This document shows, piece by piece, positions 1 through 40,806 of a DNA stretch of 59,621 bases. The position numbers and the translations under genes were made by a program. Below the pieces are notes generated by a model. The model was given only the letters and a program-made list of their open reading frames with translations. It did no database searches and was not told the origin of the DNA. Within the stretch, counting starts at the first letter, position 1, and each line of letters opens with the position of its first letter. The stretch lies in the sequence record PZ049713.1, one strand, 5' to 3'. The DNA is from a phage.

Positions 1-242
1 ATTCCAATATAAGGCAACCATGCCCAAGCTATATGCGATGTGATAAAAGAAATATCCTGGGAACAGCACCGAATAGAAAGATGCCTGACGCGCTTCTCAT
101 ATACCCATCCTTGTAATAACAGCTAAAGAGTCGCTGCTCAGGAAGTCGTGGATTATGCCCGAATGGGGCGACTATCACCACCCGATTGAGACATTCGTTT
201 ACGTCCCGCCAGTCGGGTTTTTTTTCGTCTGAAGGATTACCC

Positions 243-720
243 ATGACCCTCTCTGAAATACGGAGCGCGCCATAGCGCCCGCTCTCGCGCTGCTGCCTGC
301 GCGAATGTCGAGCCGAGAGGCAGAGATCATGCTGCTTGCTATTACTCAGCAGGAAGATCCGGAACAGCGCGCCGCCAGTGGCCGACCGGGCCGGCCCGCG
401 GGCTGCTTCAGTTCGAGCAGGGCGGTGGTGTGCGTGGTGTGCTGAGCCACCCTTCGAGCCGCGACCACGCCCGTCGAGTGTGTGCTGCTCGAGGCGTTGC
501 GCCTGAGCCTGCCGCCGTGTGGGCTGCGCTCGAGCGTGACGACGTGCTGGCGTTCGCCTTCGGCCGGCTTTTGCTATGGACTGACCCGAAGCCTCTGCCA
601 GGCGAGCATGACGCTGCGGGCGGCTGGGATCTGTACCTGCGTACATGGCGCCCTGGAAAACCGCATCCGGATCGCTGGCCAGCCCGATTCGCCGCGGCCG
701 TGCGTGAGGTGATGCGATGA
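243..720 (+). pseudogene. SLT-type endolysin copy, frameshifted
   Basis: ATG at 243 reads MTLSEIRSAP then stop; one G missing relative to the 14364-14843 copy; C-terminal 96 aa intact in another frame (ORF 430-720). Confidence 0.6.
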
Positions 721-1412
721 CCGCCTGGCTGAAGTTCGTGCCCAGCTGGGCCTGGTGGGTGCTGGCTCTGGCTGCCGTGGCCGGCGGGCAGCAGATCCGG
801 GGCGCTATCGGCGCAGTCTGACGCCGCGCAGGCGCAGGCCGATCTGGCCTCCTACCGCACCGAAGTCAGCGAGCGCGACCGCCGCGCTGCGCTGTTCGTC
901 ATTCAGGAAAACCAGCGGCGCCAGGCCGCGACGGAGAAAGCAGATGCAGAGGCACAGGAACAACTGGCTGCGGCGCGTAGCGATGCTGAGCGCGCTGGTA
1001 GTGCTCTTGAGCGGCTCAAGTTGCGCCTCGCAGCATCTGAGCAGCGCAGTCGTGACGCCGGCAATGCCATCACTGCCCAGCTCAGCCAGGCAGCCGAGGA
1101 CGCCGCCAGAGTGCGAGCCGACTTGTTCGGCCGGATTGGAACGGCTGCTCAACTCTATGCCGCTGTCGCCGATGACCGAGGAATAGCTGGGTCGGCGTGT
1201 GAGAAAGCTTATGACGCGGTGAGGGGAATCGAGATTGCCCGGACGGGCTGAGATAGGGGGAACCTCGGGCAATTTTTGGGCAGGGTACGGTTTTTCGAGG
1301 GCCCGTGAGGGCATGCAGCCCAGTAAATACGGGAGCATACCCCGCCAAAACCCCCATTAGAACTGCATGGTGATGTTGGCGGTAGAAATCAAGAGGCTTT
1401 ATCTCGCGGGTT

Positions 1413-2602
1413 TCAGAGGCGTAGCGCTACGCTTGGGCACTTTCGGGCAAACTGCAATTTGCGCATCTCAGCCCAATCGCCTTCGCCGTCGATCCAGCGG
1501 GCATACCGAGACAGCAGAATCTGTATCGAATGGCCGAGCTGCTTGGCGATGAATGCCGGTGTCATTCCGGCCATCAGGCACATGGTTGCGTAGGTGTGGC
1601 GCGCATTGTACGGGGGCCGGTAGCGAATACCCAGCGCCTTTAGCGTCGGTCGCCACTGGTGATGCAGGTCGCTTGTCTGCTGCACGAACTGAGAGTTTTT
1701 GCTTGGCGGGAAGCAGAACGGAAAATCTGTCAGCCGCCCGCTGCCGGCCGCGCGCCGCTCGGCGTACTGCTTGGCGAACAGAAGGGCATGCACTGCCCGA
1801 TCATTCAGCAGCACAAACCTTTCCTTCTTGGTCTTCGTCCGCTCGACGACCTTCTTCTTTGCTACGGACCTGCAGACGTGGACCGTACGCCTCTTCAAAT
1901 CGACCTCTTCCCAGCGAAGGGCAGCGATCTCTCCTAACCGCATGCCGGTATAGAAAGCGAACTCGAAGAACGCAGCGTATATCTGGCTGGGCCAGCGCTC
2001 CGTTTCGTAGAGCCTGGCAATGATCCTGTCCGCCTCATCCTGCGTGAACGGGTCGACCTTCGCTTCCGTCCGCGTCGGTATGTCCAGCGCCTGAATTGGG
2101 TTCTCCGTCAGGAGCCTGTCCGAAACCGCCGACTCGAGAACGGCGTCAGCTTGTTCATGGCGTTCGCCTTCACGCCGTCCGAGGTCCATGGGATTTGAAC
2201 GACTAGCTCGCGCATGAAGGCGGTCGTCAGGTTGGGAAGGAGAGTTGTGGCCAGGTACGGCATCCACCAGACATTGAGCACTGACTTGTAGTTGTCGCGC
2301 GTGCCTTCCGAGATCGATCGGCTGTCGAGCCAGACCTGGGCGTACTGGCCGAACCCGCGCGAAACGCTCGATATGGCGTTCGGCGAGCCCGGAAGAGCTC
2401 GGCATACTTACGCTCGTCGAAGATGCCGTGCTTGATCTGCTGGACTACTTGATCGCGTAGACGGGATGCAGCGGCAATGCCCGCTTGCGTCGGGGAGGGC
2501 GAGGGTTTCTGAGCATCGCTTTCCGTTCCAGCTAAATCGGATGCGGATCGTATCGTTGCGTAGCTCAACTCCGGTGGGCAGTGCCATAGGCTTTCTTGCC
2601 AT
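1413..2602 (-). pseudogene. Tyrosine integrase copy disrupted by frameshifts
   Basis: ORFs 2408-2602 and 1413-2405 together match the N- and C-terminal parts of the intact 393-aa integrase at 12471-13652 but are in different frames with a diverged middle. Confidence 0.75.
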
Positions 2603-2793
2603 TCTTCGTACCTTGATCGGCTGTAGTAGATTCGTCCATTGATGCGATTCCAGACGCCCTCGGGAATCTGGTTCCGGCTTCGCCTGCCTTCTAGGGCTCG
2701 ATCGGTTGTGCCAAGTATCATGGCCATCTGCTGCTCAGTCACCTTGTCGGGGAACCACTCCGGCAGATTCTCTAGTTTCTCTGCGCCCATCCC

Positions 2794-3510
2794 TCACCCC
2801 CTCACCGTTACGCTGGCTGCTTCGATAACTTCAGGCAGCGTGTTCAAGTCCGTCAGCGTGAAATAGCCTTCATCCCGCCAGCCGACAGTGTCGATGTGAA
2901 CGACGTTGCCGAGGATTGCTGGCGTGCGCAGCGGGGTATGGCCGACCACAAGCGCGAGCAGGTCCGGTATCCCGCTTGTGTCGACCATCTCGATTCGAGT
3001 GCGCGACCACATACAGCTGTTCTTGACCAGTTTCAGGCGCTTCGGTGATTCCGGCGCGGTCAGCTCGGCGACCGTCTGAGCCCATGTCGGAAATGGGCAG
3101 TCGGCGTGCACGATGCCAACTAGCCCTGCGTCCGTCTCCAGTTCAATGGCGATCGGCAGCTCACGGAACTGGACGGCGTACTCTGCCTGCTCGTCGCTGT
3201 TGAGCGACAGGAACCAGCCGCCGCCGTTGATGAGCCAGTTGCCCAGCTCGCAGCTGTCGTACCGGCACACGTAGTCGTCGTGGTTGCCGCGCACCGGGTG
3301 GAACCAGGGCTTTGCCAGCCACTCCAGCGCCATGTCACATTCAGGGCCGCGATCAACCAGATCGCCAACCGAGAACAGACGATCGACTGCCGGGTCAAAG
3401 CCGATCCCGTCGAGCGCCTGCTGCAGCTTCGTAAAGCATCCGTGAATGTCGCCCACGGCAAAGTCACGGCCCGCCGTGTTCTTGGCGAACCGCTTGATGA
3501 GTTCGGGCAT
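2794..3510 (-). CDS. Ser/Thr metallophosphatase (duplicate of 11563-12279)
   Basis: 238 aa identical to the 11563-12279 product; motifs GDIHG, GDLVDRG, GNHD. Confidence 0.7.
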   Translation of the reverse strand: MPELIKRFAKNTAGRDFAVGDIHGCFTKLQQALDGIGFDPAVDRLFSVGDLVDRGPECDMALEWLAKPWFHPVRGNHDDYVCRYDSCELGNWLINGGGWFLSLNSDEQAEYAVQFRELPIAIELETDAGLVGIVHADCPFPTWAQTVAELTAPESPKRLKLVKNSCMWSRTRIEMVDTSGIPDLLALVVGHTPLRTPAILGNVVHIDTVGWRDEGYFTLTDLNTLPEVIEAASVTVRG

Positions 3511-3807
3511 GCTCTATCTCCTGCTGCGTGTGGGGTTAGGCGAGCTGAGCCGGCGCCCATCCTTTGATCTTGTCGACGGCTATCGACTTGCGTGTTTGGG
3601 CGTCGTACCACATGAAGAAGCACTCATTTCCCATGAAGACTAATGAGGTTGTGGCTGCGCGCGTCCTGCCGTCTTTAAGGAAAAGCTGAATCGGCTTACC
3701 GGCAGGCGGCGGCTCGGTAACGGGTCGCATGAATGGAATTACAGGCACGAGCAAATCCTCCCCGCCGACTCTCGCCGGCAGACTGTGGGTTTGGGTGGGG
3801 TTAGGGG

Positions 3808-4476
3808 TCAGTACGGAATGCACTCTAAGCAGTTGCCGGTCCAGCCTTTCGCTCCACAGCCCGAGCAGACGTGTTCAGGCTCGGCCTCCTTCGCAGCCAT
3901 GGCGGCGCCATTCAGCTCCCCGACAACCTCGCACGCAATTGCGAATGCGTCATCGCCAAGCCGTGTTGCCCGCATGATTCTGTTCATGCCATCGATCAGT
4001 TGTTCGCGCTCGTCAATGACCGTCTTTACACGTAGCGGTATGTCGGCATATCCGTACCGAGTAAGCTCCGGCTCAGGCCCTCGGAGTGCCACTGCTGTCT
4101 TGCTCAGTAGGCCCGACAGCTTATCGCGCAGAGCGTCCAGCTCTGTCACTTCCTCCAGCAGCCTATCCCGCTCGGCGGTCACGGCTGATAGGGCGGTTAG
4201 CGGGACCAGCTGGCGAAGCTCATAGTCATCGCGACGCCGAAGTATTTCCAAGGTCCGCTCATCAGCGGATTGCCAACAGCTCGGGCCTTCGTCTGGGCAA
4301 ACGTATCGTTGCTGCCAAGCCACCACCTCGACCCCTTCCGCCTCTGCGGGCTGTTCAAGAATGGCGCGCAAATCTTCCGCCACCGAACCTTCAACGCAGC
4401 CACCACCTGGCGCGTGCACCTCAAGCCATGTCGCCGCGCTGTCCAACAGCTCCCGATCAACCAATACCTTGCTCAT
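3808..4476 (-). CDS. Hypothetical protein (duplicate of 10595-11263)
   Basis: 222 aa, 1 aa different (V/I) from the 10595-11263 product; C-terminal CSGC...CLEC cysteine pairs. Confidence 0.5.
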   Translation of the reverse strand: MSKVLVDRELLDSAATWLEVHAPGGGCVEGSVAEDLRAILEQPAEAEGVEVVAWQQRYVCPDEGPSCWQSADERTLEILRRRDDYELRQLVPLTALSAVTAERDRLLEEVTELDALRDKLSGLLSKTAVALRGPEPELTRYGYADIPLRVKTVIDEREQLIDGMNRIMRATRLGDDAFAIACEVVGELNGAAMAAKEAEPEHVCSGCGAKGWTGNCLECIPY

Positions 4477-7467
4477 TCCACTGCCTCCAATGCCTTAGCC
4501 GGGTAAATCTGCACGCTGTTGCGATGGGCGCTGCTCTCGACTGCGTAGCCCTCTGGTGTCAGTTCCGTGGAGTAGGTGCCGCAGATATGGCCTTCCCACT
4601 CGCTGCCGGTGGACTTCTTCACGAGGTCGCCCATGCGGAACTTGCCTTGCGGGGCGGTCTGCGCGGAGCGGGTGAGTGACGCCGCGATGCGTTCGTGCTG
4701 GGCGACGGTCATATACTCCCCGTCGTCATCATCGGTCATATACGCCTCAACCTCAGAGGCGCGCCCGCAATGCGGCACGCTGGTCATCGGGCTGAACCGC
4801 TCCACCGCCTCCCGCTCATCCTGCGCCGGGCTGGCTCGTCGCCCTCCAGCTCTGCCGCTAGCTCGGGATTGCACACTGAGCAACCATCGCCAACCGTGCG
4901 CTCTCGCATCGTGCAGCGGCATTCCGACTCGGCCTGCTGGGATAGGGCGTCCTGATCCGTCCAGCCAGCGTGATCATGGAAAGGTGCAGGCCGCAGCCAT
5001 CGCCGTAGTGTTCGGCTTGGCAATCGACCACCTGCTGCGACGACCCGCGCATCGCTTCGTTCTCCGCCTTCGCAGCCCCCAGCTCAGCGCCGATTCGCCC
5101 GGCTACCTTCAGTGTGTCGTTCATTGCTCAATCTCCTTGATTGTGGCCAGCGGCAGCCCGCTCATTGCCAGCGGCTCGTCGTAGCAGACGCCCATCATCT
5201 CGGGCCATTTACGCGGCTCGCCCGGGTTTGATGGCGCCCTGGTATATGCCGGTCCCATGCCAGCCGATGCCGGATGACCTCGATACAAGTCCCACGCAAT
5301 GCCATCCTCGCGGCGCTTCGTGGCCTCCGGCATCAGTGTGCAGCCAGGCGCTGGATCTCGTGCCGCGTGGCGTGGACCTGCTCCCAGTCGCGCCGGTCGT
5401 AGAACCCGGCAGCCGCTCAATGGCGTGATCTGATCTGGCCGATCTTGATGCGTGCCAGTAGCTCACAGGCCTCTTGCAGCTCGGCGGCCTGGCGCTCGAG
5501 TTACGTGTGATGGTGTAGGTGCGCATTGGCGCCTCCTCGGCGGCTCCGGTGGGCGGCAGCGGAAACAGGGCGCATGGCCGATCCGCTTCCGTCTGTGCGG
5601 CAGAAGATTGGTGCGTTCACAGCGGCAGCGACCTGCACCGCAAGGCATTCGGCCTCGCCGTGGGGTGATGCAAGCCGATTCACTCGATCGCGCCACTCGT
5701 CCATCGACTCCCTGTGTCAGGGTGGCGGCCCGGCTTGTGGCATTCGGGCTGGAGAGGGCAGGCGCTGCAGCTGCTGCGGGACTTGAAGTTGTAGTGCTGG
5801 CGGCAGAGGGCCTTGGCGGTGTCGGATAGCTGGGTCACGGAGCAGATCCTTCGTAGCGGCTCACGCGGCGCAATGCGCGGCTCGACGTCGATGAACCGGA
5901 GCCTCGGAAGTCGCCATCGGTAGCGCGGCGACTGTCCACCTCAAGGCGCGCCGTGGCGTTAACCTCGGCCGCGACCTCGGCTACAGCCTTCGCTTGTCTC
6001 AATCGAGTAGGCTGCCGGCCAGCACGCCCTCCATCGTCTTGCCGAGGCATGGCGCGCAGATCACTGAGGTTGTTCATGGTGCTCTCCAGTTTGTCGAGCT
6101 TCCGCTCGAACCAGCCGAGCGTTATGGCTGCCTGGCGACCCTCGGGCGGATAGCGTTCGATTGAGTTGCGGCGCATGTCTTGTGCGGGTGACTAGCTCGA
6201 GGTTGTCGATTCCAGATGTTGGCGGGGTTGCGATCCTTGAAGACGAGGAAGTGCCCAGCCGGCACTGGGCCGCTGTGCCTTCCCACAACATCACGTGGAC
6301 CGGGCGCCAGTCAGTGCGCTTGTTGCCGGTGTCCGCCACCTTGCGGTAGAGGATGCCGCCCTTGTCGGTGCGCTCCGCTCCGATGGGGCGCCAGGTGTTC
6401 GATGGTCGGTGACCCAGCTTGAACTGCGTGTCCTTGGCCCGGCCTCCTGCCTGCCATCCTTTGCGGCCAGAGTTCCATGTCTGGTGGCCAGGCTTGAACC
6501 TGCCGCAGCCTGTGATTTCCTTGAACTCATCCGGTCGCGTTAGCTCCGAGTTTCGACACGCGATCGTGAATCGAGCCAGTGCCGCGCCCCATCAAGGCTG
6601 CTATCTCGGTGATGGGGCTTGGTGGCATAACAGTTCTGCCAGTGTTGCTGTCCTCTGCCGGCGTCCAGTGCCGGTATTCCGTGCGCCTCCTGCCGGCCAG
6701 TGGGCTCATTTCTTCCGTCTCCCGTGCGTTGTGGCTGTCCAGCCCGGCGCTGGCTACTTGGTTGCCGTGGTCAGCTATCAGGCTGTCGATCAGGGCGCCC
6801 ATGTAGGCGACTAGGCCAGTGACTGTTTCACCACGGGCCATCGCGCTGTGGGTGTGCTTCTCGCCGTTGGGCAGCACGAACCACGCGCTGGCGTTCCAGC
6901 TCGGAAGGGCGCCGAGGCTCAGTGCCGCGAACTACTGGCCGCGACACTCGGTTGTCGATTGAATAGAGCGTCACGATGCAGCTCATGGCTGGCACACCTC
7001 CAGCAGTGCCGCGTCGCTCAGATCACCAAGCGGCGCAGCGATGTATTGAGCAAGCGCGTAGACGCCCCACGGCTTGCCAGCGATTTCCGCCCGGTACGCC
7101 GCGTGACGGATGGCGTCGAGCACGTCGGGGAATCTCATGGCCACTCCTGCCGCAGCACGTCGTTCTGCTTGGCCTGCGGAGTGCCGCGCTTGCGCAGAGG
7201 GAGGCTGTTCGATACGGCAGAGTTGCGGGCGCCACGCTTGCGGCTGCGCTGGTCCGCCTCCGCGTTTCCGGCGTTGTTGAAGACGGCAGGCTTGATCTCT
7301 ATCGGCTTGCCGATGCTGTCGGGCAGCAGCTGGATCTTTCCGCCAGCGCTCAGGAATGCAGCCGGGCCGCGTCATCTGCGCGCGCGGAGCCTCGCCCTGC
7401 GCGACGGCATGGTTGTCGATGAGCGTGGGTGCGTACCGGGGAGGGGGCGGTGGCGCCGGGTGGATCA

Positions 7468-7603
7468 GATCAGCAGCAAGGGCAGCCGCAGCAACAGCGT
7501 CAAGGCCAGCCACAACGCAGCCAGCAGGCGGCGCCTCCAGCCTATGATGACGATGTGCCATTCGCCAACCCCTACTGCGGCGCCCGCTCGCTGCTGATCT
7601 GAT
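7468..7603 (+). other. 3' fragment of the 58480-58818 gene, truncated at the inversion junction
   Basis: 7468 onward is collinear with 58684 onward (Gln-rich C-terminus ...DQQQGQPQQQRQ...); sequence immediately upstream of 7468 is inverted-copy DNA. Confidence 0.8.
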
Positions 7604-7646
7604 CCACCCCGGGCGCCCAGCGCGCCCTCCTCCCCGGTACACACCC

Positions 7647-7940
7647 ATGCTCATAGACAACCATGCCATAGCGCAGGGCGAGGCTCTGCGCGCGCAAATT
7701 GACGCGGCCACGGCTGCATTCCTGAACGCTGGCGGAAAGATCCAGCTGCTGCCCGACAGCATCGGCAAGCCGATAGAGATCAAGCCTGCCGTCTTCAACA
7801 ACGCCGGAAACGCGGAGGCGGACCAGCGCAGCCGCAAGCGTGGCGCCCGCAACTCTGCCGTATCGAACAGCCTCCCTCTGCGCAAGCGCGGCACTCCGCA
7901 GGCCAAGCAGAACGACGTGCTGCGGCAGGAGTGGCCATGA
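7647..7940 (+). CDS. Hypothetical early protein
   Basis: 97-aa ORF; identical copy at 58863-59156; stop overlaps next start (ATGA). Confidence 0.45.
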   Translation: MLIDNHAIAQGEALRAQIDAATAAFLNAGGKIQLLPDSIGKPIEIKPAVFNNAGNAEADQRSRKRGARNSAVSNSLPLRKRGTPQAKQNDVLRQEWP

Positions 7941-8092
7941 GATTCCCCGACGTGCTCGACGCCATCCGTCACGCGGCGTACCGGGCGGAAATCACTGGCA
8001 AGCCGTGGGGCGTCTACGCGCTTGCTCAATACATCGCTGCGCCGCTTGGTGATCTGAGCGACGCGGCACTGCTGGAGGTGTGCCAGCCATGA
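7937..8092 (+). CDS. Hypothetical small protein (51 aa)
   Basis: Not in ORF track (below 60 aa); ATG 7937 overlaps upstream stop, TGA 8090-8092 overlaps next ATG; reads MRFPDVLDAIRHAAYRAEITGKPWGVYALAQYIAAPLGDLSDAALLEVCQP. Confidence 0.4.
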   Translation: MRFPDVLDAIRHAAYRAEITGKPWGVYALAQYIAAPLGDLSDAALLEVCQP

Positions 8093-8367
8093 GCTGCATC
8101 GTGACGCTCTATTCAATCGACAACCGAGTGTCGCGGCCAGTAGTTCGCGGCACTGAGCCTCGGCGCCCTTCCGACTGGAACGCCAGCGCGTGGTTCGTGC
8201 TGCCCAACGGCGAGAAGCACACCCACAGCGCGATGGCCCGTGGTGAAACAGTCACTGGCCTAGTCGCCTACATGGGCGCCCTGATCGACAGCCTGATAGC
8301 TGACCACGGCAACCAAGTAGCCAGCGCCGGCTGGACGGCCACAACGCACGGGAGACGGAAGAAATGA
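8089..8367 (+). CDS. Hypothetical early protein
   Basis: ORF-track frame 8080-8367; ATG at 8089 overlaps upstream stop. Confidence 0.4.
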   Translation: MSCIVTLYSIDNRVSRPVVRGTEPRRPSDWNASAWFVLPNGEKHTHSAMARGETVTGLVAYMGALIDSLIADHGNQVASAGWTATTHGRRKK

Positions 8368-9011
8368 GCCCACTGGCCGGCAGGAGGCGCACGGAATACC
8401 GGCACTGGACGCCGGCAGAGGACGCAACACTGGCAGAACTGTATGCCACCAAGCCCATCACCGAGATAGCAGCCTTGATGGGGCGCGGCACTGGCTCGAT
8501 TCACAATCGCGTGTCGAAACTCGGACTGACGCGACCGGATGAGTTCAAGGAAATCACAGGCTGCGGCAGGTTCAAGCCTGGCCACCAGACATGGAACTCT
8601 GGCCGCAAAGGATGGCAGGCAGGAGGCCGGGCCAAGGACACGCAGTTCAAGCTGGGTCACCGACCATCGAACACCTGGCGCCCCATCGGAGCGGAGCGCA
8701 CCGACAAGGGCGGCATCCTCTACCGCAAGGTGGCGGACACCGGCAACAAGCGCACTGACTGGCGCCCGGTCCACGTGATGTTGTGGGAAGAGCACAGCGG
8801 CCCAGTGCCGGCTGGGCACTTCCTCGTCTTCAAGGATCGCAACCCCGCCAACATCTCAATCGACAACCTCGAGCTAGTCACCCGCGCAGAGAACATGCGC
8901 CGCAACTCAATCGAACGCTATCCGCCCGAGTATCGCCAGGCAGCCATAACGCTCGGCTGGTTCAAGCGGAAGCTCAACAAACTGGAGCAGCACCATGAAC
9001 AACCTCAGTGA
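8364..9011 (+). CDS. HNH endonuclease (HNH_3-like) with N-terminal Myb/SANT-like HTH
   Basis: 215 aa; C-terminal ...HFLVFKDRNPANISIDNLELVTRAEN... resembles the HNH_3 core. Confidence 0.6.
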   Translation: MSPLAGRRRTEYRHWTPAEDATLAELYATKPITEIAALMGRGTGSIHNRVSKLGLTRPDEFKEITGCGRFKPGHQTWNSGRKGWQAGGRAKDTQFKLGHRPSNTWRPIGAERTDKGGILYRKVADTGNKRTDWRPVHVMLWEEHSGPVPAGHFLVFKDRNPANISIDNLELVTRAENMRRNSIERYPPEYRQAAITLGWFKRKLNKLEQHHEQPQ

Positions 9012-9234
9012 TCTGCGCGCCATCCTCGGCAAGACGATGGAGGGCGTGCTGGCCGGCACCTACTCGATTGAACAAGCGAAGGCTGTAGCCCAGGTCGCGG
9101 CCGAAGTTAACGCCACGGCGCGCCTTGAGGTGGACATGGCCCGCGCTACCGATGGCGACTTCCGAGGCTCCGGTTTCATCGACGTCGAGCCGCGCATTGC
9201 GCCGCGTGAGCCGCTACGGAGGATTGCTCCGTGA
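8995..9234 (+). CDS. Hypothetical early protein
   Basis: 79-aa ORF in operon orientation. Confidence 0.35.
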   Translation: MNNLSDLRAILGKTMEGVLAGTYSIEQAKAVAQVAAEVNATARLEVDMARATDGDFRGSGFIDVEPRIAPREPLRRIAP

Positions 9235-9452
9235 CCGAGCTATCCGACACCGCCAAGGCCATCTGCGCCCAGCACTACAACTTCAAGTCCCGCAGCAGCT
9301 GCAACGCCTGCCCTCTCCAGCCCGAATGCCACAAGCCGGCCGCCACCCTGACACAGGAGTCGATGGACGAGTGGCGCGATCGAGTGAATCGGCTTGCATT
9401 ACCCCACGGCGAGGCCGAATGCCTTGCGGTGCAGGAGTCGCTGCCGCTGTGA
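9231..9452 (+). CDS. Hypothetical Cys-rich small protein
   Basis: 73 aa; GTG start overlapping upstream stop; CNACPLQPEC motif. Confidence 0.35.
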   Translation: MTELSDTAKAICAQHYNFKSRSSCNACPLQPECHKPAATLTQESMDEWRDRVNRLALPHGEAECLAVQESLPL

Positions 9453-9543
9453 ACGCACCAATCTTCTGCCGCACAGACGGAAAGCGGATCGGCCAATGCG
9501 CCTGTTTCCGCTGCCGCCCACCGGAGCCGCCCAAGGAGGCGCC

Positions 9544-9948
9544 ATGCGCACCTACACCATCACCGTAACCGAGCGCCAGGCCGCCGAGCTGCAAGAGGCC
9601 TGTGAGCTACTGGCACGCATCAAGATCGGCCAGATCGATCACGCCATTGAGCGGCTGCCGGGCTTCTACGACCGGCGCGACTGGGAGCAGGTCCACGCCA
9701 CGCGGCACGAGATCCAGCGCCTGGCTAACACACTGATGCCGGAGGCCACGAAGCGCCGCGAGGATGGCATTGCGTGGGACTTGTATCAGGTCATCCGGCA
9801 TCGGCTGGCATGGGACCGGGCATATGACCAGGGCGCCATCAAACCCGGCGAGCCGCGTAAATGGCCCGAGATGATGGGCGTCTGCTACGACGAGCCGCTG
9901 GCAATGAGCGGGCTGCCGCTGGCCACAATCAAGGAGATTGAGCAATGA
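9544..9948 (+). CDS. Hypothetical early protein
   Basis: ATG at 9544 preceded by AAGGAGG; in frame with ORF-track 9394-9948. Confidence 0.45.
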   Translation: MRTYTITVTERQAAELQEACELLARIKIGQIDHAIERLPGFYDRRDWEQVHATRHEIQRLANTLMPEATKRREDGIAWDLYQVIRHRLAWDRAYDQGAIKPGEPRKWPEMMGVCYDEPLAMSGLPLATIKEIEQ

Positions 9949-10598
9949 ACGACACACTGAAGGTAGCCGGGCGAATCGGCGCTGAGCTGGGGGCTGCGAA
10001 GGCGGAGAACGAAGCGATGCGCGGGTTGTTGCAGCAGGTGGTCGATTGCCAAGCCGAACACTACGGCGATGGCTGCGGCCTGCACCTTTCCATGATCACG
10101 CTGGCTGGACGGATTAAGGACGCCCTATCCCAGCAGGCCGAGTCGGAATGCCGCTGCACGATGCGAGAGCGCACGGTTGGCGATGGTTGCTCAGTGTGCA
10201 ATCCCGAGCTAGCGGCAGAGCTGGAGGGCGACGAGCCAGCCCCGGCGCAGGATGAGCGGGAGGCGGTGGAGCGGTTCAGCCCGATGACCAGCGTGCCGCA
10301 TTGCGGGCGCGCCTCTGAGGTTGAGGCGTATATGACCGATGATGACGACGGGGAGTATATGACCGTCGCCCAGCACGAACGCATCGCGGCGTCACTCACC
10401 CGCTCCGCGCAGACCGCCCCGCAAGGCAAGTTCCGCATGGGCGACCTCGTGAAGAAGTCCACCGGCAGCGAGTGGGAAGGCCATATCTGCGGCACCTACT
10501 CCACGGAACTGACACCAGAGGGCTACGCAGTCGAGAGCAGCGCCCATCGCAACAGCGTGCAGATTTACCCGGCTAAGGCATTGGAGGCAGTGGAATGA
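9945..10598 (+). CDS. Hypothetical protein, Cys-rich
   Basis: 217 aa; ATGA overlap with upstream gene. Confidence 0.45.
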   Translation: MNDTLKVAGRIGAELGAAKAENEAMRGLLQQVVDCQAEHYGDGCGLHLSMITLAGRIKDALSQQAESECRCTMRERTVGDGCSVCNPELAAELEGDEPAPAQDEREAVERFSPMTSVPHCGRASEVEAYMTDDDDGEYMTVAQHERIAASLTRSAQTAPQGKFRMGDLVKKSTGSEWEGHICGTYSTELTPEGYAVESSAHRNSVQIYPAKALEAVE

Positions 10599-11263
10599 GC
10601 AAGGTATTGGTTGATCGGGAGCTGTTGGACAGCGCGGCGACATGGCTTGAGGTGCACGCGCCAGGTGGTGGCTGCGTTGAAGGTTCGGTGGCGGAAGATT
10701 TGCGCGCCATTCTTGAACAGCCCGCAGAGGCGGAAGGGGTCGAGGTGGTGGCTTGGCAGCAACGATACATTTGCCCAGACGAAGGCCCGAGCTGTTGGCA
10801 ATCCGCTGATGAGCGGACCTTGGAAATACTTCGGCGTCGCGATGACTATGAGCTTCGCCAGCTGGTCCCGCTAACCGCCCTATCAGCCGTGACCGCCGAG
10901 CGGGATAGGCTGCTGGAGGAAGTGACAGAGCTGGACGCTCTGCGCGATAAGCTGTCGGGCCTACTGAGCAAGACAGCAGTGGCACTCCGAGGGCCTGAGC
11001 CGGAGCTTACTCGGTACGGATATGCCGACATACCGCTACGTGTAAAGACGGTCATTGACGAGCGCGAACAACTGATCGATGGCATGAACAGAATCATGCG
11101 GGCAACACGGCTTGGCGATGACGCATTCGCAATTGCGTGCGAGGTTGTCGGGGAGCTGAATGGCGCCGCCATGGCTGCGAAGGAGGCCGAGCCTGAACAC
11201 GTCTGCTCGGGCTGTGGAGCGAAAGGCTGGACCGGCAACTGCTTAGAGTGCATTCCGTACTAA
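10595..11263 (+). CDS. Hypothetical protein with C-terminal CxxC...CxxC
   Basis: 222 aa; ATGA overlap with upstream gene. Confidence 0.45.
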   Translation: MSKVLVDRELLDSAATWLEVHAPGGGCVEGSVAEDLRAILEQPAEAEGVEVVAWQQRYICPDEGPSCWQSADERTLEILRRRDDYELRQLVPLTALSAVTAERDRLLEEVTELDALRDKLSGLLSKTAVALRGPEPELTRYGYADIPLRVKTVIDEREQLIDGMNRIMRATRLGDDAFAIACEVVGELNGAAMAAKEAEPEHVCSGCGAKGWTGNCLECIPY

Positions 11264-11538
11264 CCCCCCCTAACCCCACCCAAACCCACAGTCTGCCGGC
11301 GAGAGTCGGCGGGGAGGATTTGCTCGTGCCTGTAATTCCATTCATGCGACCCGTTACCGAGCCGCCGCCTGCCGGTAAGCCGATTCAGCTTTTCCTTAAA
11401 GACGGCAGGACGCGCGCAGCCACAACCTCATTAGTCTTCATGGGAAATGAGTGCTTCTTCATGTGGTACGACGCCCAAACACGCAAGTCGATAGCCGTCG
11501 ACAAGATCAAAGGATGGGCGCCGGCTCAGCTCGCCTAA
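11248..11538 (+). CDS. Hypothetical protein (start uncertain)
   Basis: ORF-track frame; GTG at 11248 or ATG at 11344, neither with a clear SD. Confidence 0.3.
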   Translation: MHSVLTPPNPTQTHSLPARVGGEDLLVPVIPFMRPVTEPPPAGKPIQLFLKDGRTRAATTSLVFMGNECFFMWYDAQTRKSIAVDKIKGWAPAQLA

Positions 11539-11562
11539 CCCCACACGCAGCAGGAGATAGAC

Positions 11563-12279
11563 ATGCCCGAACTCATCAAGCGGTTCGCCAAGAACACGGC
11601 GGGCCGTGACTTTGCCGTGGGCGACATTCACGGATGCTTTACGAAGCTGCAGCAGGCGCTCGACGGGATCGGCTTTGACCCGGCAGTCGATCGTCTGTTC
11701 TCGGTTGGCGATCTGGTTGATCGCGGCCCTGAATGTGACATGGCGCTGGAGTGGCTGGCAAAGCCCTGGTTCCACCCGGTGCGCGGCAACCACGACGACT
11801 ACGTGTGCCGGTACGACAGCTGCGAGCTGGGCAACTGGCTCATCAACGGCGGCGGCTGGTTCCTGTCGCTCAACAGCGACGAGCAGGCAGAGTACGCCGT
11901 CCAGTTCCGTGAGCTGCCGATCGCCATTGAACTGGAGACGGACGCAGGGCTAGTTGGCATCGTGCACGCCGACTGCCCATTTCCGACATGGGCTCAGACG
12001 GTCGCCGAGCTGACCGCGCCGGAATCACCGAAGCGCCTGAAACTGGTCAAGAACAGCTGTATGTGGTCGCGCACTCGAATCGAGATGGTCGACACAAGCG
12101 GGATACCGGACCTGCTCGCGCTTGTGGTCGGCCATACCCCGCTGCGCACGCCAGCAATCCTCGGCAACGTCGTTCACATCGACACTGTCGGCTGGCGGGA
12201 TGAAGGCTATTTCACGCTGACGGACTTGAACACGCTGCCTGAAGTTATCGAAGCAGCCAGCGTAACGGTGAGGGGGTGA
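11563..12279 (+). CDS. Ser/Thr protein phosphatase (calcineurin-like metallophosphatase)
   Basis: 238 aa; motifs GDIHG, GDLVDRG, GNHD in canonical order. Confidence 0.8.
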   Translation: MPELIKRFAKNTAGRDFAVGDIHGCFTKLQQALDGIGFDPAVDRLFSVGDLVDRGPECDMALEWLAKPWFHPVRGNHDDYVCRYDSCELGNWLINGGGWFLSLNSDEQAEYAVQFRELPIAIELETDAGLVGIVHADCPFPTWAQTVAELTAPESPKRLKLVKNSCMWSRTRIEMVDTSGIPDLLALVVGHTPLRTPAILGNVVHIDTVGWRDEGYFTLTDLNTLPEVIEAASVTVRG

Positions 12280-12282
12280 GGG

Positions 12283-12630
12283 ATGGGCGCAGAGAAACTA
12301 GAGAATCTGCCGGAGTGGTTCCCCGACAAGGTGACTGAGCAGCAGATGGCCATGATACTTGGCACAACCGATCGAGCCCTAGAAGGCAGGCGAAGCCGGA
12401 ACCAGATTCCCGAGGGCGTCTGGAATCGCATCAATGGACGAATCTACTACAGCCGATCAAGGTACGAAGAATGGCAAGAAAGCCTATGGCACTGCCCACC
12501 GGAGTTGAGCTACGCAACGATACGATCCGCATCCGATTTAGCTGGAACGGAAAGCGATGCTCAGAAACCCTCGCCCTCCCCCCGACGCAAGCGGGCATTG
12601 CCGCTGCATCCCGTCTACGCGATCAAGTAG
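12283..12630 (+). CDS. xis: Excisionase-like DNA-binding protein (3' end uncertain, overlaps int)
   Basis: N-terminal ~65 aa (...VTEQQMAMILGTTDRALEGRRSRNQIPEGVWNRINGRIYYSRSRYEEW) resembles excisionase-family HTH proteins; immediately upstream of int. Confidence 0.5.
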   Translation: MGAEKLENLPEWFPDKVTEQQMAMILGTTDRALEGRRSRNQIPEGVWNRINGRIYYSRSRYEEWQESLWHCPPELSYATIRSASDLAGTESDAQKPSPSPRRKRALPLHPVYAIK

Positions 12631-13652
12631 TCCAGCAGATCAAGCACGGCATCTTCGACGAGCGTAAGTATGCCGAGCTCTTCCCGGGCTCGCCGAACGC
12701 CATATCGAGCGTTTCGCGCGGGTTCGGCCAGTACGCCCAGGTCTGGCTCGACAGCCGATCGATCTCGGAAGGCACGCGCGACAACTACAAGTCAGTGCTC
12801 AATGTCTGGTGGATGCCGTACCTGGCCACAACTCTCCTTCCCAACCTGACGACCGCCTTCATGCGCGAGCTAGTCGTTCAAATCCCATGGACCTCGGACG
12901 GCGTGAAGGCGAACGCCATGAACAAGCTGAGCACCATTCTCGAGTCGGCGGTTTCGGACAGGCTCCTGACGGAGAACCCAATTCAGGCGCTGGACATACC
13001 GACGCGGACGGAAGCGAAGGTCGACCCGTTCACGCAGGATGAGGCGGACAGGATCATTGCCAGGCTCTACGAAACGGAGCACTGGCCCAGCCAGATATAC
13101 GCTGCGTTCTTCGAGTTCGCTTTCTATACCGGCATGCGGTTAGGAGAGATCGCTGCCCTTCGCTGGGAAGAGGTCGATTTGAAGAGGCGTACGGTCCACG
13201 TCTGCAGGTCCGTAGCAAAGAAGAAGGTCGTCGAGCGGACGAAGACCAAGAAGGAAAGGTTTGTGCTGCTGAATGATCGGGCAGTGCATGCCCTTCTGTT
13301 CGCCAAGCAGTACGCCGAGCGGCGCGCGGCCGGCAGCGGGCGGCTGACAGATTTTCCGTTCTGCTTCCCGCCAAGCAAAAACTCTCAGTTCGTGCAGCAG
13401 ACAAGCGACCTGCATCACCAGTGGCGACCGACGCTAAAGGCGCTGGGTATTCGCTACCGGCCCCCGTACAATGCGCGCCACACCTACGCAACCATGTGCC
13501 TGATGGCCGGAATGACACCGGCATTCATCGCCAAGCAGCTCGGCCATTCGATACAGATTCTGCTGTCTCGGTATGCCCGCTGGATCGACGGCGAAGGCGA
13601 TTGGGCTGAGATGCGCAAATTGCAGTTTGCCCCAAAAGTGCCCCAAGCGTAG
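12471..13652 (+). CDS. int: Tyrosine-type phage integrase
   Basis: 393 aa; C-terminal catalytic region with ...ARHTYATMCLMAG...LGHSIQILLSRYARW... (R, H-x-x-R, Y). Confidence 0.9.
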   Translation: MARKPMALPTGVELRNDTIRIRFSWNGKRCSETLALPPTQAGIAAASRLRDQVVQQIKHGIFDERKYAELFPGSPNAISSVSRGFGQYAQVWLDSRSISEGTRDNYKSVLNVWWMPYLATTLLPNLTTAFMRELVVQIPWTSDGVKANAMNKLSTILESAVSDRLLTENPIQALDIPTRTEAKVDPFTQDEADRIIARLYETEHWPSQIYAAFFEFAFYTGMRLGEIAALRWEEVDLKRRTVHVCRSVAKKKVVERTKTKKERFVLLNDRAVHALLFAKQYAERRAAGSGRLTDFPFCFPPSKNSQFVQQTSDLHHQWRPTLKALGIRYRPPYNARHTYATMCLMAGMTPAFIAKQLGHSIQILLSRYARWIDGEGDWAEMRKLQFAPKVPQA

Positions 13653-13851
13653 CACTACACCTCTGAAACCCGCGAGATAAAGCCTCTTGATTTCTACCGC
13701 CAACATCACCATGCAGTTCTAATGGGGGTTTTGGCGGGGTATGCTCCCCGTATTTACTGGGCTGCATGCCCTCACGGGCCCTCGAAAAACCGTACCCTGC
13801 CCCAAAAATTGCCCCGAGATTTGCCCCCTATCTCAGCCCGTCCGGGCAATC

Positions 13852-14367
13852 TCAATTCCCCCTCACCGCGTCATAAGCTTTCTCACACGCCGACCCAGCT
13901 ATTCCTCGGTCATCGGCGACAGCAGCATAGAGTTGAGCAGCCGTTCCAATCCGGCCGAACAAGTCGGCTCGCACTCTGGCGGCGTCCTCGGCTGCCTGGC
14001 TGAGCTGGGCAGTGATGGCATTGCCGGCGTCACGACTGCGCTGCTCAGATGCTGCGAGGCGCAACTTGAGCCGCTCAAGAGCACTACCAGCGCGCTCAGC
14101 ATCGCTACGCGCCGCAGCCAGTTGTTCCTGTGCCTCTGCATCTGCTTTCTCCGTCGCGGCCTGGCGCCGCTGGTTTTCCTGAATGACGAACAGCGCAGCG
14201 CGGCGGTCGCGCTCGCTGACTTCGGTGCGGTAGGAGGCCAGATCGGCCTGCGCCTGCGCGGCGTCAGACTGCGCCGATAGCACCCGGATCTGCTGCCCGC
14301 CGGCCACGGCAGCCAGAGCCAGCACCCACCAGGCCCAGCTGGGCACGAACTTCAGCCAGGCGGTCAT
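13852..14367 (-). CDS. Rz-like i-spanin
   Basis: 171 aa; N-terminal TM (WAWWVLALAAVAGG) followed by Ala/Gln/Arg-rich coiled coil; embedded +1-frame ORF; adjacent to endolysin. Confidence 0.6.
   Translation of the reverse strand: MTAWLKFVPSWAWWVLALAAVAGGQQIRVLSAQSDAAQAQADLASYRTEVSERDRRAALFVIQENQRRQAATEKADAEAQEQLAAARSDAERAGSALERLKLRLAASEQRSRDAGNAITAQLSQAAEDAARVRADLFGRIGTAAQLYAAVADDRGIAGSACEKAYDAVRGN
13899..14102 (-). CDS. Rz1-like o-spanin embedded in Rz
   Basis: Alternative-frame ORF: MLSALVVLLSGSSC signal/lipobox-like start then Pro-rich stretch ending ...PPECEP; the lipobox is not canonical. Confidence 0.4.
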   Translation of the reverse strand: MLSALVVLLSGSSCASQHLSSAVVTPAMPSLPSSARQPRTPPECEPTCSAGLERLLNSMLLSPMTEE

Positions 14368-14843
14368 CGCATCACCTCACGCACGGCCGCGGCGAATCGG
14401 GCTGGCCAGCGATCCGGATGCGGTTTTCCAGGGCGCCATGTACGCAGGTACAGATCCCAGCCGCCCGCAGCGTCATGCTCGCCTGGCAGAGGCTTCGGGT
14501 CAGTCCATAGCAAAAGCCGGCCGAAGGCGAACGCCAGCACGTCGTCACGCTCGAGCGCAGCCCACACGGCGGCAGGCTCAGGCGCAACACCTCGAGCAGC
14601 ACACACTCGACGGGCGTGGTCGCGGCTCGAAGGGTGGCTCAGCACACCACGCACACCACCGCCCTGCTCGAACTGAAGCAGCCCGCGGGCCGGCCCGGTC
14701 GGCCACTGGCGGCGCCGCTGTTCCGGATCTTCCTGCTGAGTAATAGCAAGCAGCATGATCTCTGCCTCTCGGCTCGACATTCGCGCAGGCAGCAGCGCGA
14801 GAGCGGGCGCTATGGCGCGCTCCCGTATTTCAGAGAGGGTCAT
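14364..14843 (-). CDS. Endolysin candidate (lytic transglycosylase / SLT-like)
   Basis: ATG at 14843 (MTLSEIRERAIAPALALL...); SLT-like ...LLAITQQEDPEQ... region; ATGA overlap with Rz. Confidence 0.5.
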   Translation of the reverse strand: MTLSEIRERAIAPALALLPARMSSREAEIMLLAITQQEDPEQRRRQWPTGPARGLLQFEQGGGVRGVLSHPSSRDHARRVCAARGVAPEPAAVWAALERDDVLAFAFGRLLLWTDPKPLPGEHDAAGGWDLYLRTWRPGKPHPDRWPARFAAAVREVMR

Positions 14844-14985
14844 GGGTAATCCTTCAGACGAAAAAAAACCCGACTGGCGGGACGTAAACGAATGTCTCAA
14901 TCGGGTGGTGATAGTCGCCCCATTCGGGCATAATCCACGACTTCCTGAGCAGCGACTCTTTAGCTGTTATTACAAGGATGGGTAT

Positions 14986-16146
14986 ATGAGAAGCGCGTCA
15001 GGCATCTTTCTATTCGTGCTGTTCCCAGGATATTTCTTTTATCACATCGCATATAGCTTGGGCATGGTTCCTTATATTGGAATCTTCACAATCACTCTAG
15101 CCATTGCGTGTGGCTACTTCCTAATTAAGCTATTTATTGGACTTCTGAGAAATCCTTACCCGATAGTGTCATTTGCAGATGCATGCTTTGTTCTGTTAAT
15201 AATCACGCTGTCTGCAATTACCATCGTGAACCACACGCTTAATGACGGTGCGTATATCGATACGGACGGACTTGTGTTTAGCGCATCAATCATCGTATCG
15301 ATGACTGGGCTTTATTTTTTAGGGAGAAATATAGTTCTGGAGCAGCAAAAGAAATCGACGCTTGCAGCGCTGGCTTTACTAGCCGGATACCTCGCATGCG
15401 CGATAATTTTCTATCAAGAAAACGGCGGCTATATGCTGCTCCCCACTCCGAGCGAATCGGCGCCGGAGCCCTCAAATTATCAGGGCCTTGCCCGCTCGGT
15501 TATGTACTCGCTGATTTTCACTTTGCCCTTTATCAAGTCTGGGCTCATGAGATTCGTCTACGCTGCAGCCAGCCTAGCCTGCTTGTATTTGATCGGTTCA
15601 AGAACGGACTTCGCACTTTGCGCTATGGTGTTCCTGGTTTCGATGCTGATAAGGTCAAGCATTAGAGGCGCAGTTATGGCATATGGATTGATGATACTCG
15701 CCTTACCAGCCGCGCTTTATTTTCTCTACCAGTCCGACAGATTCGCGATCAGCTCCACCGACCCGTCACTTGTTGCGCGTGGAATATTCACCGAATCATC
15801 AATAGACGGAATTTCGGGTTCACCTATCCTTGGTGATTACCTCGGGCAGGTTAGAGACTTCGGCGACATTGGAAGTTACGCGCACAACGCTCTTTCCATG
15901 TACCAGCAATTCGGACTAATACCGTTCATTGCTTACATTGCATTCATTATTTTTAGCTTATTGATCGCAATCAAGTCTCTCGCTATAAATCGTCGATCTC
16001 CATACACAGAGCTTCTGCTGCATCTTTCCGTCGTTGCGCTGGCCGGGGTCTTGGTGGCGAAGTCAATACTCTGGACGACCCCAGTACTGGCCTGGGGTCT
16101 TGCGGTGAGCATAAGGAGAAATCGCTACGCTTGTATTAGGCCGTAA
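14986..16146 (+). CDS. Polytopic membrane protein, Wzy-like (O-antigen polymerase/ligase family)
   Basis: 386 aa from ATG 14986 with AAGGA SD; many hydrophobic helices; markedly AT-richer than flanks; between lysis genes and tailspike. Confidence 0.5.
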   Translation: MRSASGIFLFVLFPGYFFYHIAYSLGMVPYIGIFTITLAIACGYFLIKLFIGLLRNPYPIVSFADACFVLLIITLSAITIVNHTLNDGAYIDTDGLVFSASIIVSMTGLYFLGRNIVLEQQKKSTLAALALLAGYLACAIIFYQENGGYMLLPTPSESAPEPSNYQGLARSVMYSLIFTLPFIKSGLMRFVYAAASLACLYLIGSRTDFALCAMVFLVSMLIRSSIRGAVMAYGLMILALPAALYFLYQSDRFAISSTDPSLVARGIFTESSIDGISGSPILGDYLGQVRDFGDIGSYAHNALSMYQQFGLIPFIAYIAFIIFSLLIAIKSLAINRRSPYTELLLHLSVVALAGVLVAKSILWTTPVLAWGLAVSIRRNRYACIRP

Positions 16147-31203: not shown

Positions 31204-32184
31204 TCAGCCATCATAGGCCGGCATGGCTATCGGCGCCAAGATGGGCAGGTGCCTCCACGACTTCCCGATGACGATGCCGCGAATGACGGACCTATGCTTC
31301 CCGTAGTCGCGCGCAATCTGAACCAAGGGCTCACCCCTCTGCGCTCTCCGCCTGATGTCCATGATCTCAGCTTCTGTGAAGGCCGCGTTGTAGACCTTTT
31401 CGCCACGGTGGTTTATTGGCGGGGTATCGCCTAGCGGGAGGTGCCTCCATGTTTCGCCGCTAATAATCTTGCTTACAGCACTCCTGCTCACCCCGTACAT
31501 CTCGGCAATCTTTGCAGCGCTATTGCCGGCCGCCCGCAGACGCCTTATCTCCAGAACCTTTTGATCATTCAGCTTGGCCGATGAGATGTGCTCGCCCTGC
31601 GCGGTCCCCTCTGTCCGCCTTTGCTCCCAGTTGGCACGGCCAGCTATGGAGCTTATAGCTGACCTCTTGGCGTCGGATATCGCCATGCGCCCTCGGCGCG
31701 CCCTTTCGCTGCGCACCGCCGGGCCTACCATCATGCGGGCTTCGTGCTGCGCGTCAGTCCATGGAACATCTTTCTTCACAGCAGACATGCGAGCGCGGTA
31801 CTCATCGCAGCTCCACAGCCTCTGCACTGCCGACCTTATTCGGTCTCTGAGCTCTGGCGGAGCATCCAGCATCCCTTCGCCGCCCGCTGTGTGATTGACC
31901 AGATTGGCGCCGCCGGCCTTGAGCTTTGCTATCCAGTAGCGCTCAGATTCGTTCCATGTGGCGTCTCGCTGCAAGACTCTCACGCAGGCCTCATCGCCCC
32001 GCGCTATAACTGACCGGACCCAGTAGTCGCGGTGGGTTGGCCTGCTGGTTGACCCTGAGCGGGTTACGTGCTGGCGCAGCCGTCGCTCCACGGAGACCAC
32101 GGTCTGCCCGACATAGCGCATCAGTCCGTCAGATTTTGCATATAGCGCGTATACCGTGCACGTGCGAGAATTGGCGTCAGCCAT
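31204..32184 (-). CDS. GIY-YIG homing endonuclease with tandem C-terminal HTH repeats
   Basis: 326 aa; N-terminal VYALYAKSDGLMRYVGQT...RLRQH; two repeats of ...(I/V)A(E/R)xYG(V/K)xRS(A/V)(V/I)...(E/K)(T/S)WRHLP. Confidence 0.75.
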   Translation of the reverse strand: MADANSRTCTVYALYAKSDGLMRYVGQTVVSVERRLRQHVTRSGSTSRPTHRDYWVRSVIARGDEACVRVLQRDATWNESERYWIAKLKAGGANLVNHTAGGEGMLDAPPELRDRIRSAVQRLWSCDEYRARMSAVKKDVPWTDAQHEARMMVGPAVRSERARRGRMAISDAKRSAISSIAGRANWEQRRTEGTAQGEHISSAKLNDQKVLEIRRLRAAGNSAAKIAEMYGVSRSAVSKIISGETWRHLPLGDTPPINHRGEKVYNAAFTEAEIMDIRRRAQRGEPLVQIARDYGKHRSVIRGIVIGKSWRHLPILAPIAMPAYDG

Positions 32185-40723: not shown

Positions 40724-40806
40724 TTGTCGCTCCCATATAGCGCTAATGGTTAGGGCCGGCAGTGTGTTCCCGCACTCTGCTGGCCCGTTCAATTCTACCA
40801 AATTAA

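Follow-up and report, generated by a model that had tools for sequence, protein, structure and literature searches.

The window, by which we mean the whole 59,621-nucleotide stretch of the phage record PZ049713.1 that was analysed, contains a complete phage genome unit, a short terminal overlap and, at its left end, an inverted copy of part of the unit. The features are as follows:

1 to 7467, minus strand: left arm, the reverse complement of 7600-15083 with many errors, outside the phage genome
7468 to 7477, plus strand: microhomology S, GATCAGCAGC, the strand-switch point, equal to the reverse complement of 7590-7599
7478 to 7589, plus strand: loop of 112 nt, non-palindromic, the centre of the foldback, authentic genome sequence
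7590 to 7599, plus strand: microhomology S', GCTGCTGATC, inverted partner of S, directly followed by the SSB-like stop codon (7600-7602)
7600 to 15083, plus strand: right arm, the authentic copy
7468 to 58683, plus strand: canonical unit of the circular phage genome, its length of 51,216 bp given by the spacing of the exact direct repeats (58684 - 7468)
58480 to 58818, plus strand: SSB-like gene, intact (phrog_18187, 112 aa, E = 1e-32), spanning 58683/58684
58684 to 59604, plus strand: terminal overlap, a second copy of 7468-8388 (921/921 identical)
59605 to 59621, plus strand: garbled tail of 17 nt, interpreted as unpolished contig-end noise

The true genome, that of a temperate Pseudomonas/Stutzerimonas phage, is 7468-58683, a circle of 51,216 bp. 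Since 58684-59604 equals 7468-8388 at 100%, the authentic left neighbour of 7468 is 58683, and the exact repeat with 58684 onward begins at the first base of S. This overlap marks a circular or concatemeric template. It ends where the tail reads ...GGCAGGAGG|CTCAAGCGGCGCACGAAA, against ...GGCAGGAGG|CGCACGGAATACC at 8389 onward; degradation of the 3' end, as the first-pass annotation had described it, is real for these last 17 nt but does not extend to the 921 identical bases that precede them. The content of the unit is lambdoid, with a CI-like repressor, DnaB, a DnaC-like protein, TerL, portal, MuF, capsid, tape-measure protein, tail tip protein J, tailspike and integrase. The phage is present in the window in its excised, circular state, with attP intact, and not as a chromosomal prophage; no tRNA was found at the attachment site. 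Iterons at 47440-47527 mark the likely origin; the foldback site lies elsewhere.

Sequences from other sources support the junction 58683|7468. A 32-nt probe spanning it matched nine IMG/VR contigs exactly, whereas the probe for the foldback junction gave 0 matches in IMG/VR and 0 in the JGI metagenomes. The HSPs of two related loci (L017 and L022) continue straight across the authentic junction, and those of four others (L014, L018, L019 and L021) extend about 130-180 bp beyond it. None of the 22 related loci examined has an inverted self-repeat of at least 200 bp. Related phages of 90-94% identity occur in many metagenomes; GenBank holds no near-identical phage, the best match being phage PS-1 with 11% coverage and about 90% identity. 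The assembly collection, searched for exact matches to the integrase and metallophosphatase proteins in order to find an independent assembly, returned none.

Self-BLAST aligned 1-15083 with its own reverse complement (98.2% identity, E = 0), and in the alignment of the arms 1-7477 pairs with the reverse complement of 7590-15083 at 98.5% identity, with 113 differences. The inverted duplication proposed by the first-pass annotation is therefore confirmed, except that the right arm starts at 7590 (7600 without the microhomology) and not at 7604, and that the microhomology at the junction, given there as 5 nt, is the 10-nt GATCAGCAGC. The breakpoints of the two arms are 112-122 nt apart on opposite strands, and on its outer side the left arm just runs to the edge of the window. 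The junction does fall inside a gene, as had been noted: the foldback interrupts the SSB-like gene (ORF 58480-58818) at 7468, the 3' end of this gene being 7468-7602. Its translation includes a DDDVPF motif, and the loop, identical to 58694-58805, encodes its Q-rich C-terminal region. The SSB-like gene adjoins the phage recombination module. The idea that the 10-nt inverted repeat is special was rejected, as the genome unit holds 16 pairs comparable to GATCAGCAGC/GCTGCTGATC where about 10 are expected by chance. ONT ligation and PacBio SMRTbell adapters, sought with up to 3 mismatches, were absent from the junction and from the rest of the window, which makes a simple unsplit template/complement read unlikely.

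According to Pfam and PHROGs, the right arm carries, in order, a SutA-RBD-like gene, a hypothetical gene, an HNH gene, hypotheticals, a gene for an R67-DHFR-domain protein, further hypotheticals, a metallophosphatase, an excisionase, an integrase, attP (near 13719), a 179-aa ORF and the 5' part of a Wzy-like gene. Most genes of the left arm are frameshifted: indels disrupt the left copies of the integrase, excisionase, HNH, SutA-like and DHFR-domain genes and of several hypotheticals. Frameshifts in the integrase and HNH genes had already been reported, together with frameshifts in an endolysin and a spanin gene; the latter two labels were rejected, Pfam and PHROGs backing neither for any ORF of the arms.

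The 113 differences between the arms comprise 46 substitutions, 42 left-arm deletions and 25 left-arm insertions. All indels are of a single base, and they outnumber the substitutions 67:46 (59% of differences); 41 of the 67 lie within runs of at least two, and 15 of the 25 insertions add a G. The substitutions are strongly biased, with 35 AT->GC changes vs 4 GC->AT (p = 3e-11), and asymmetric between strands, 29 being from A vs 6 from T (p = 0.001), a pattern suggestive of reads in a single orientation. Among the A>G changes, 17/25 convert CpA to CpG. Within coding sequence (n = 42), substitutions are distributed 17/15/10 over the codon positions, and 32 are nonsynonymous and 10 synonymous.

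The differences are also clustered, as the first-pass annotation had pointed out (index of dispersion 5.9 per 250-nt bin). Dense patches at 7600-7840, 8840-9840 and 13590-13840 are found along with identical runs of up to 1015 bp; the longest of these, 11563-12577, includes the entire metallophosphatase gene, whose identity between the arms had likewise been recognised. The error density of the left arm peaks at 14% per 100 nt and 5.6% per 500 nt. Such a peak is close to a raw-read error rate and fits a scarcely polished long read. Homopolymer density was rejected as the source of the patchiness (rho = 0.03 overall), the attP-region bin 13590-13839 being the only one that is rich in homopolymers.

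Relatives of at least 85% identity covered 94 of the 113 differences (39 substitutions, 32 deletions and 23 insertions). At all 94 the derived state was in the left arm, with relatives matching the right arm 94:0; phage PS-1 by itself gave 12:0 for the right arm. Moreover, alignments to relatives needed 0-4 gap openings for the right arm vs 6-32 for the left. Altogether, the differences between the arms look like sequencing error and not like evolution.

Our results support the notion that the left arm 1-7467 is very probably an assembly artefact, derived from a chimeric foldback long read, and not part of the phage genome. The first-pass annotation had favoured an artefact over a genuine rearrangement, and this preference is borne out by the restriction of derived states to the left arm, the excess of indels, the AT->GC bias and the strand asymmetry, as well as by an authentic junction that is present in the window and in nine independent viral contigs while the foldback junction was found nowhere else. 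The 3' side of the contig also ends in garbled bases (17). One or a few chimeric foldback reads probably let the assembler extend the contig beyond the point of circularisation, and this extension was polished only in patches. In such a read, the minus strand, running leftward to about 7468, would be joined to the plus strand from 7600 by way of the 10-nt inverted repeat GATCAGCAGC/GCTGCTGATC, leaving the 112-nt loop. The join has the geometry of a snap-back or template switch, in which a free 3' end pairs with a short complement about 120 nt off, on the opposite or a displaced strand, and is then extended. Strand-displacing polymerases used in library repair and amplification make such snap-back products. 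We infer that the left arm is backed by one or a few reads, that its patchiness arose during polishing, when the correct arm competed for the mapped reads, and that the chimera formed in vitro; the sequencing platform was probably nanopore.

A rare molecule formed in vivo is the next reading to consider, although we regard it as improbable. The junction would then be physical yet outside the heritable genome: the nascent 3' end would have switched template at the 10-nt inverted repeat during rolling-circle or theta replication, or during break repair, giving a real minority snap-back or inverted-dimer molecule (a hairpin or inverted-dimer defective genome) that was sampled by one or a few reads. 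The geometry of the junction, a short inverted repeat with a loop, is that expected of replication template switching, the junction is without adapter, and the template is circular or concatemeric. The error-rich left arm is equally compatible with a minority molecule of low read support. The trace that an in-vivo snap-back leaves in the sequence would be identical to that of an in-vitro artefact. However, in-vitro processes yield the same geometry (PMC1855051; PMC12870357), and their baseline rate suffices for a single event. Moreover, the site is ordinary in view of the number of comparable inverted pairs, it lies away from the likely origin, and the structure is seen in no relative.

It is very unlikely that part of the phage or prophage was genuinely duplicated in inverted orientation, as a heritable structure now decaying by mutation. 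The first-pass annotation had left a decaying inverted prophage open as the other possibility, and it is effectively excluded by the one-sided derived states, the error-like spectrum and the excised circular form. It is true that an inverted copy is present in the deposited sequence and that many genes are disrupted in one copy and intact in the other. Neutral divergence should nevertheless affect both copies of a duplicated block, and the polarity observed is 94:0 (39:0 for substitutions alone). Nor is the divergence dominated by substitutions of the usual spectrum, since indels exceed them. Mutation pressure in bacteria is AT-biased, which is opposite to the 35:4 AT->GC excess seen here, an excess that is strand-asymmetric as well. 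A near-perfect 7.5-kb palindrome with a 112-nt spacer would be highly unstable in bacteria, for instance through SbcCD cleavage. The circular form with attP at about 13719 has no bacterial flanks, and a genome of 58.7 kb, or 115% of the unit, would fit awkwardly with a headful-type terminase. Finally, no relative carries the inverted copy.

There is only the slightest chance that a related phage or strain, present as a second one in a mixed sample, supplied the left arm and that a chimeric join placed it in inverted orientation. The occurrence of related phages at 90-94% identity in many metagenomes makes a mixture conceivable, but the two arms are 98.5% identical, and 0/94 of the left arm's private differences are shared with relatives, on which ground the reading was rejected. 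Real variants would be mostly synonymous, substitution-dominated and partly shared, whereas 59% of the differences are frameshifting 1-nt indels and 32/42 coding substitutions are nonsynonymous. An N15-type linear plasmid-prophage, with the palindrome as a head-to-head replication intermediate or an unresolved hairpin telomere, is just as hard to credit and was rejected: read-through of a hairpin does look like a long palindrome at a contig end, but the centre here is an asymmetric 112-nt coding loop in the SSB-like gene with no telRL-like perfect dyad, the genome closes circularly via 58683|7468, integrase, excisionase and attP are present, and Pfam found no protelomerase among the ORFs of at least 400 aa, all of which were assigned to other families (Wzy-like, tailspike, tail tip protein J, tape-measure protein, TerL, HNH, DnaB and a portal-position ORF).

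The value of recognising the foldback artefact is chiefly practical. Left untrimmed, the 7.5-kb arm raises the apparent genome size from 51.2 to 59.6 kb, introduces about 15 spurious frameshifted "pseudogenes", a second and broken integrase among them, and would mislead annotation, clustering and terminus-prediction tools with a false inverted repeat or "decaying prophage". The record needs to be reduced to 7468-58683 and closed into a circle. Even where reads are lacking, artefacts of this kind can be recognised by polarising the differences between arms with relatives, by the ratio of indels to substitutions and by strand asymmetry; the presence of the authentic junction elsewhere in the contig is a further sign.

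Replication-fork and snap-back models describe how large inverted duplications arise in vivo, in bacteria, yeast and Tetrahymena, when the template is switched at short inverted repeats and a palindrome results. The structure reported here resembles them in its short inverted repeat and in a spacer of about 100 nt kept as an asymmetric central loop; in contrast, in-vivo palindromes are clonally inherited, accurate copies, whereas here the error-like load is one-sided and the foldback occurs alongside the normal junction. Pseudomonas phage PS-1 (AP014684) and Stutzerimonas/Pseudomonas prophages share the gene order of the duplicated region, at 83-94% identity in patches, from the recombination module through the SSB-like, SutA-like and DHFR-domain genes to the excisionase and integrase. 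In these genomes the region is single-copy and in direct order, without an inverted copy.

Long-read-only phage assemblies are known to contain indel and homopolymer errors within coding regions (PMC10438801). Among the chimeras made by multiple displacement amplification (MDA), more than 85% combine an inversion with an intervening deletion, and more than 70% are primed at 2-21 nt of complementarity (Lasken & Stockwell 2007, PMC1855051); chimeric reads of the MDA type cause inverted duplications in assemblies (Pacasus, PMC6218980). The present case is alike in all these respects: an inversion with an intervening deletion (the skipped loop 7478-7589, 112 nt), 10 nt of complementarity (GATCAGCAGC/GCTGCTGATC) and an inverted duplication in an assembly. 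MDA data sets usually hold many chimeras, whereas a single one is visible here.

There is also a likeness to foldback reads, defined as two segments on opposite strands that map within 200 bp of each other (Heinz, Meyerson & Li 2026, PMC12870357). They make up about 0.55-0.6% of reads in ONT genomic DNA libraries and probably arise from library preparation (PMC12870357). Here, too, the breakpoints lie on opposite strands at the same locus and within that limit (112 nt), the junction is free of adapter, the second segment is of poor quality and the event is unique. The foldback is not genomic, the normal junction being found in the window and in the nine IMG/VR contigs while the foldback is unsupported elsewhere. 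In contrast to foldback reads as described, which are seen in a read, the present one is visible after assembly, as an extension of the contig.

The window matches itself on the reverse strand over 1-15083 in one self-BLAST alignment (98.2% identity), and the arm-to-arm alignment pairs 1-7477 (left arm) with 7590-15083 (right arm) at 98.5% identity across 7.5 kb. The inverted duplication of the phage's own sequence reported in the first-pass annotation is thus confirmed, with small corrections to coordinates and gene names. The arms differ at 113 positions, where the left arm carries 46 substitutions as well as 67 one-base indels (42 deletions, 25 insertions). Its outer end is window position 1 and is set by the contig edge, not by a sequence feature. 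The sequence of the centre places the junction at 7467/7468, as annotated, but the microhomology is 10 nt long instead of 5 nt. The arms do not meet in a perfect dyad, since 112 nt of non-palindromic sequence separate the following elements:

7468-7477: microhomology GATCAGCAGC
7590-7599: GCTGCTGATC, the complement of GATCAGCAGC

The window's 3' copy reveals the authentic neighbour of 7468, as the same sequence is preceded there by 58683. The annotated position of the junction inside a gene also holds; the corresponding authentic join is spanned by an intact gene:

58480-58818: SSB-like protein, 112 aa, phrog_18187, with a DDDVPF tail

A 32-nt probe for the authentic junction has exact matches in 9 independent IMG/VR contigs. 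Among the related loci, the HSPs of L017 and L022 pass straight across 58683|7468 and those of L014, L018, L019 and L021 extend ~130-180 bp beyond it; the gene order is also that of the relative Pseudomonas phage PS-1 (AP014684). A 29-nt probe for the foldback junction gave zero matches in IMG/VR and the JGI metagenome collection, and an inverted self-repeat of at least 200 bp was found in 0 of 22 related loci. Where a relative matches both arms, both map to one and the same region of that relative.

Self-BLAST further showed that 58684-59604 is a direct repeat of 7468-8388 with 100% identity (921/921), and the 17 bases past 59604, at the window's 3' end, diverge from 8389 onward. This makes the window a 51,216-bp unit, circular or concatemeric, with a short end overlap and an extra 5' inverted arm, and the clean phage genome is 7468-58683 (51,216 bp), circular. 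All right-arm genes and the remainder of the genome form long intact ORFs. The nearest GenBank phage is PS-1 and the nearest prophages are those of Stutzerimonas stutzeri and other pseudomonads. Integrated-prophage homology ends at window position 13719, which indicates that an intact attP is present and that the window represents the excised phage form, not a chromosomal prophage. The predicted gene content is typical of a lambdoid temperate siphovirus:

CI-like repressor, O-like initiator with a 44-nt tandem repeat, DnaC-like protein, DnaB
TerL, portal, MuF, major capsid protein, tape-measure protein, tail tip protein J, beta-helix tailspike
Wzy-like protein, integrase, excisionase
Rad52-like annealase, Gp157, small SSB-like protein

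Several loci of this genome deserve mention in their own right:

7647-7940 (+): 97-aa protein matching phrog_31907 and, with a score exceeding the gathering threshold, the SutA RNA-polymerase-binding domain (PF20661, E = 3e-8); it may be a phage-borne mimic of a Pseudomonas RNAP-binding factor
8364-9011 (+), 31204-32184 (-), 39581-40816 (-): three homing-endonuclease-like genes in one 51-kb phage, one GIY-YIG + HTH gene between the MuF and capsid genes and two HNH genes
9945-10598 (+): 217-aa protein with a C-terminal R67-type dihydrofolate reductase domain (PF06442, E = 1e-20), of the type II, trimethoprim-insensitive family; its homologue in PS-1 bears the annotation 'dehydrofolate reductase'
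13625-13830: homopolymer-rich attP region, also among the left arm's dense error patches; the attP core is probably at 13719, with several short TTGCCCC(A)-like repeats in its flanks as candidate integrase arm sites, and no tRNA was found at the attachment site
14755-18182: low-GC island (GC 0.46 at 15001-16000) just past attP, which looks like a seroconversion moron; it encodes a Wzy/O-antigen-ligase-like membrane protein (weak Pfam match, E = 0.002) adjoining the beta-helix tailspike (16125-18182, minus strand)
47440-47527: two tandem 44-nt units (89% identity), probably origin iterons, within the HTH_36 replication-initiator gene (47033-47974, minus strand)
49620-50330 (+): DUF3800 protein gene directly downstream of the CI-like repressor gene (48916-49590), possibly a lysogeny-expressed accessory or defence gene

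In addition, an 18.6-kb contig of a 'Coriobacteriia MAG' (L002, JBFHJN010000049.1) carries an integrase 98% identical to that of this Pseudomonas/Stutzerimonas phage, with flanking DNA ~93% identical, and was probably mis-binned.

Four independent properties of the arm differences, namely polarity, type, spectrum and density, indicate that they are errors, not mutations. Of the 113 differences, 94 are covered by relatives at least 85% identical that served as outgroups, and these have the right-arm state at all 94 (39 substitutions, 32 deletions, 23 insertions); PS-1 alone gives 12:0. Two real copies diverging by mutation would be expected to show changes in both, at least at silent sites. Indels outnumber substitutions (67:46), deletions being commoner than insertions, and 41 of the 67 indels lie within runs of at least two identical bases, for example with homopolymer compression from C7 to C4 at 11264 and from C6 to C4 at 12578. 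The left-arm substitutions include 35 AT->GC vs 4 GC->AT changes (p = 3e-11 given base composition), opposite to the AT-biased mutation pressure of bacteria. CpA becomes CpG in 17 of 25 A>G changes, and G is the inserted base in 15 of 25 insertions. Substitutions from A exceed those from T (29 vs 6, p = 0.001), a strand asymmetry expected if the left arm derives from single-orientation reads only. The highly uneven divergence and identical phosphatase gene noted at first pass are borne out by an index of dispersion of 5.9 and by identical stretches of up to 1015 bp that include the whole metallophosphatase gene; peak densities (14% within 100 nt, 5.6% within 500 nt) are close to a raw long-read error rate. 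Substitutions fall 17/15/10 over the codon positions (32 nonsynonymous vs 10 synonymous). Nearly all left-arm genes carry frameshifts as a result (SutA-like, DHFR-domain, excisionase, several hypothetical and, as previously annotated, HNH and integrase).

Together with the presence of the authentic junction, these properties support the earlier preference for a long-read foldback with unpolished contig-end errors; the inverted left arm is no biological feature. Read on the opposite strand, the genome's minus strand runs down to 7468, ending in GCTGCTGATC, and is followed by the plus strand from 7600. A 3' end terminating in GCTGCTGATC would anneal to GATCAGCAGC, 112 nt behind, either on its own strand or on the displaced complement, and its extension would constitute a snap-back or template switch. 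Comparable short inverted pairs are common in the phage genome (16 observed vs ~10 expected by chance), so the foldback site needs no special property. The junction geometry excludes a trivial unsplit template/complement read, from which a palindrome lacking a loop would result.

A rare snap-back molecule formed in vivo would leave a sequence trace identical to that of an in-vitro chimera; we consider it improbable, and it is the sole mildly novel reading remaining. Less credible still is a heritable, decaying inverted duplication, which conflicts with the polarity, type and spectrum of the differences, with its absence from relatives and with the coexisting normal junction; moreover, bacteria do not stably maintain long near-perfect palindromes. 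Chimeric joining of a second strain is contradicted by the left-arm variants, 0 of 94 of which are shared with relatives. Finally, a hairpin-telomere (N15-like) genome is contradicted by an asymmetric, coding palindrome centre, circular closure, an integrase/attP system and the lack of any protelomerase-sized unassigned ORF.

For the long-read foldback, an assembler probably used one or a few foldback reads to extend the contig. During polishing, correct reads would have mapped preferentially to the accurate right arm at sites of existing left-arm differences, and such competitive mapping would leave raw-read-quality patches amid stretches corrected or initially right. The deletion excess, homopolymer compression and 17 garbled bases at the 3' end are suggestive of nanopore sequencing, but no sequencing adapter was found that would establish the platform. 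Inverted duplications in assemblies are known to result from such chimeric reads (PMC6218980). With strand-displacing polymerases, the dominant chimera type (>85%) is inverted with an intervening deletion, and priming by 2-21 nt of complementarity occurs in >70% (PMC1855051); the window junction fits snap-back priming of this dominant type. Foldback artefacts make up ~0.55-0.6% of ONT genomic reads and are thought to stem from library preparation, and the window junction agrees with their operational definition (PMC12870357).
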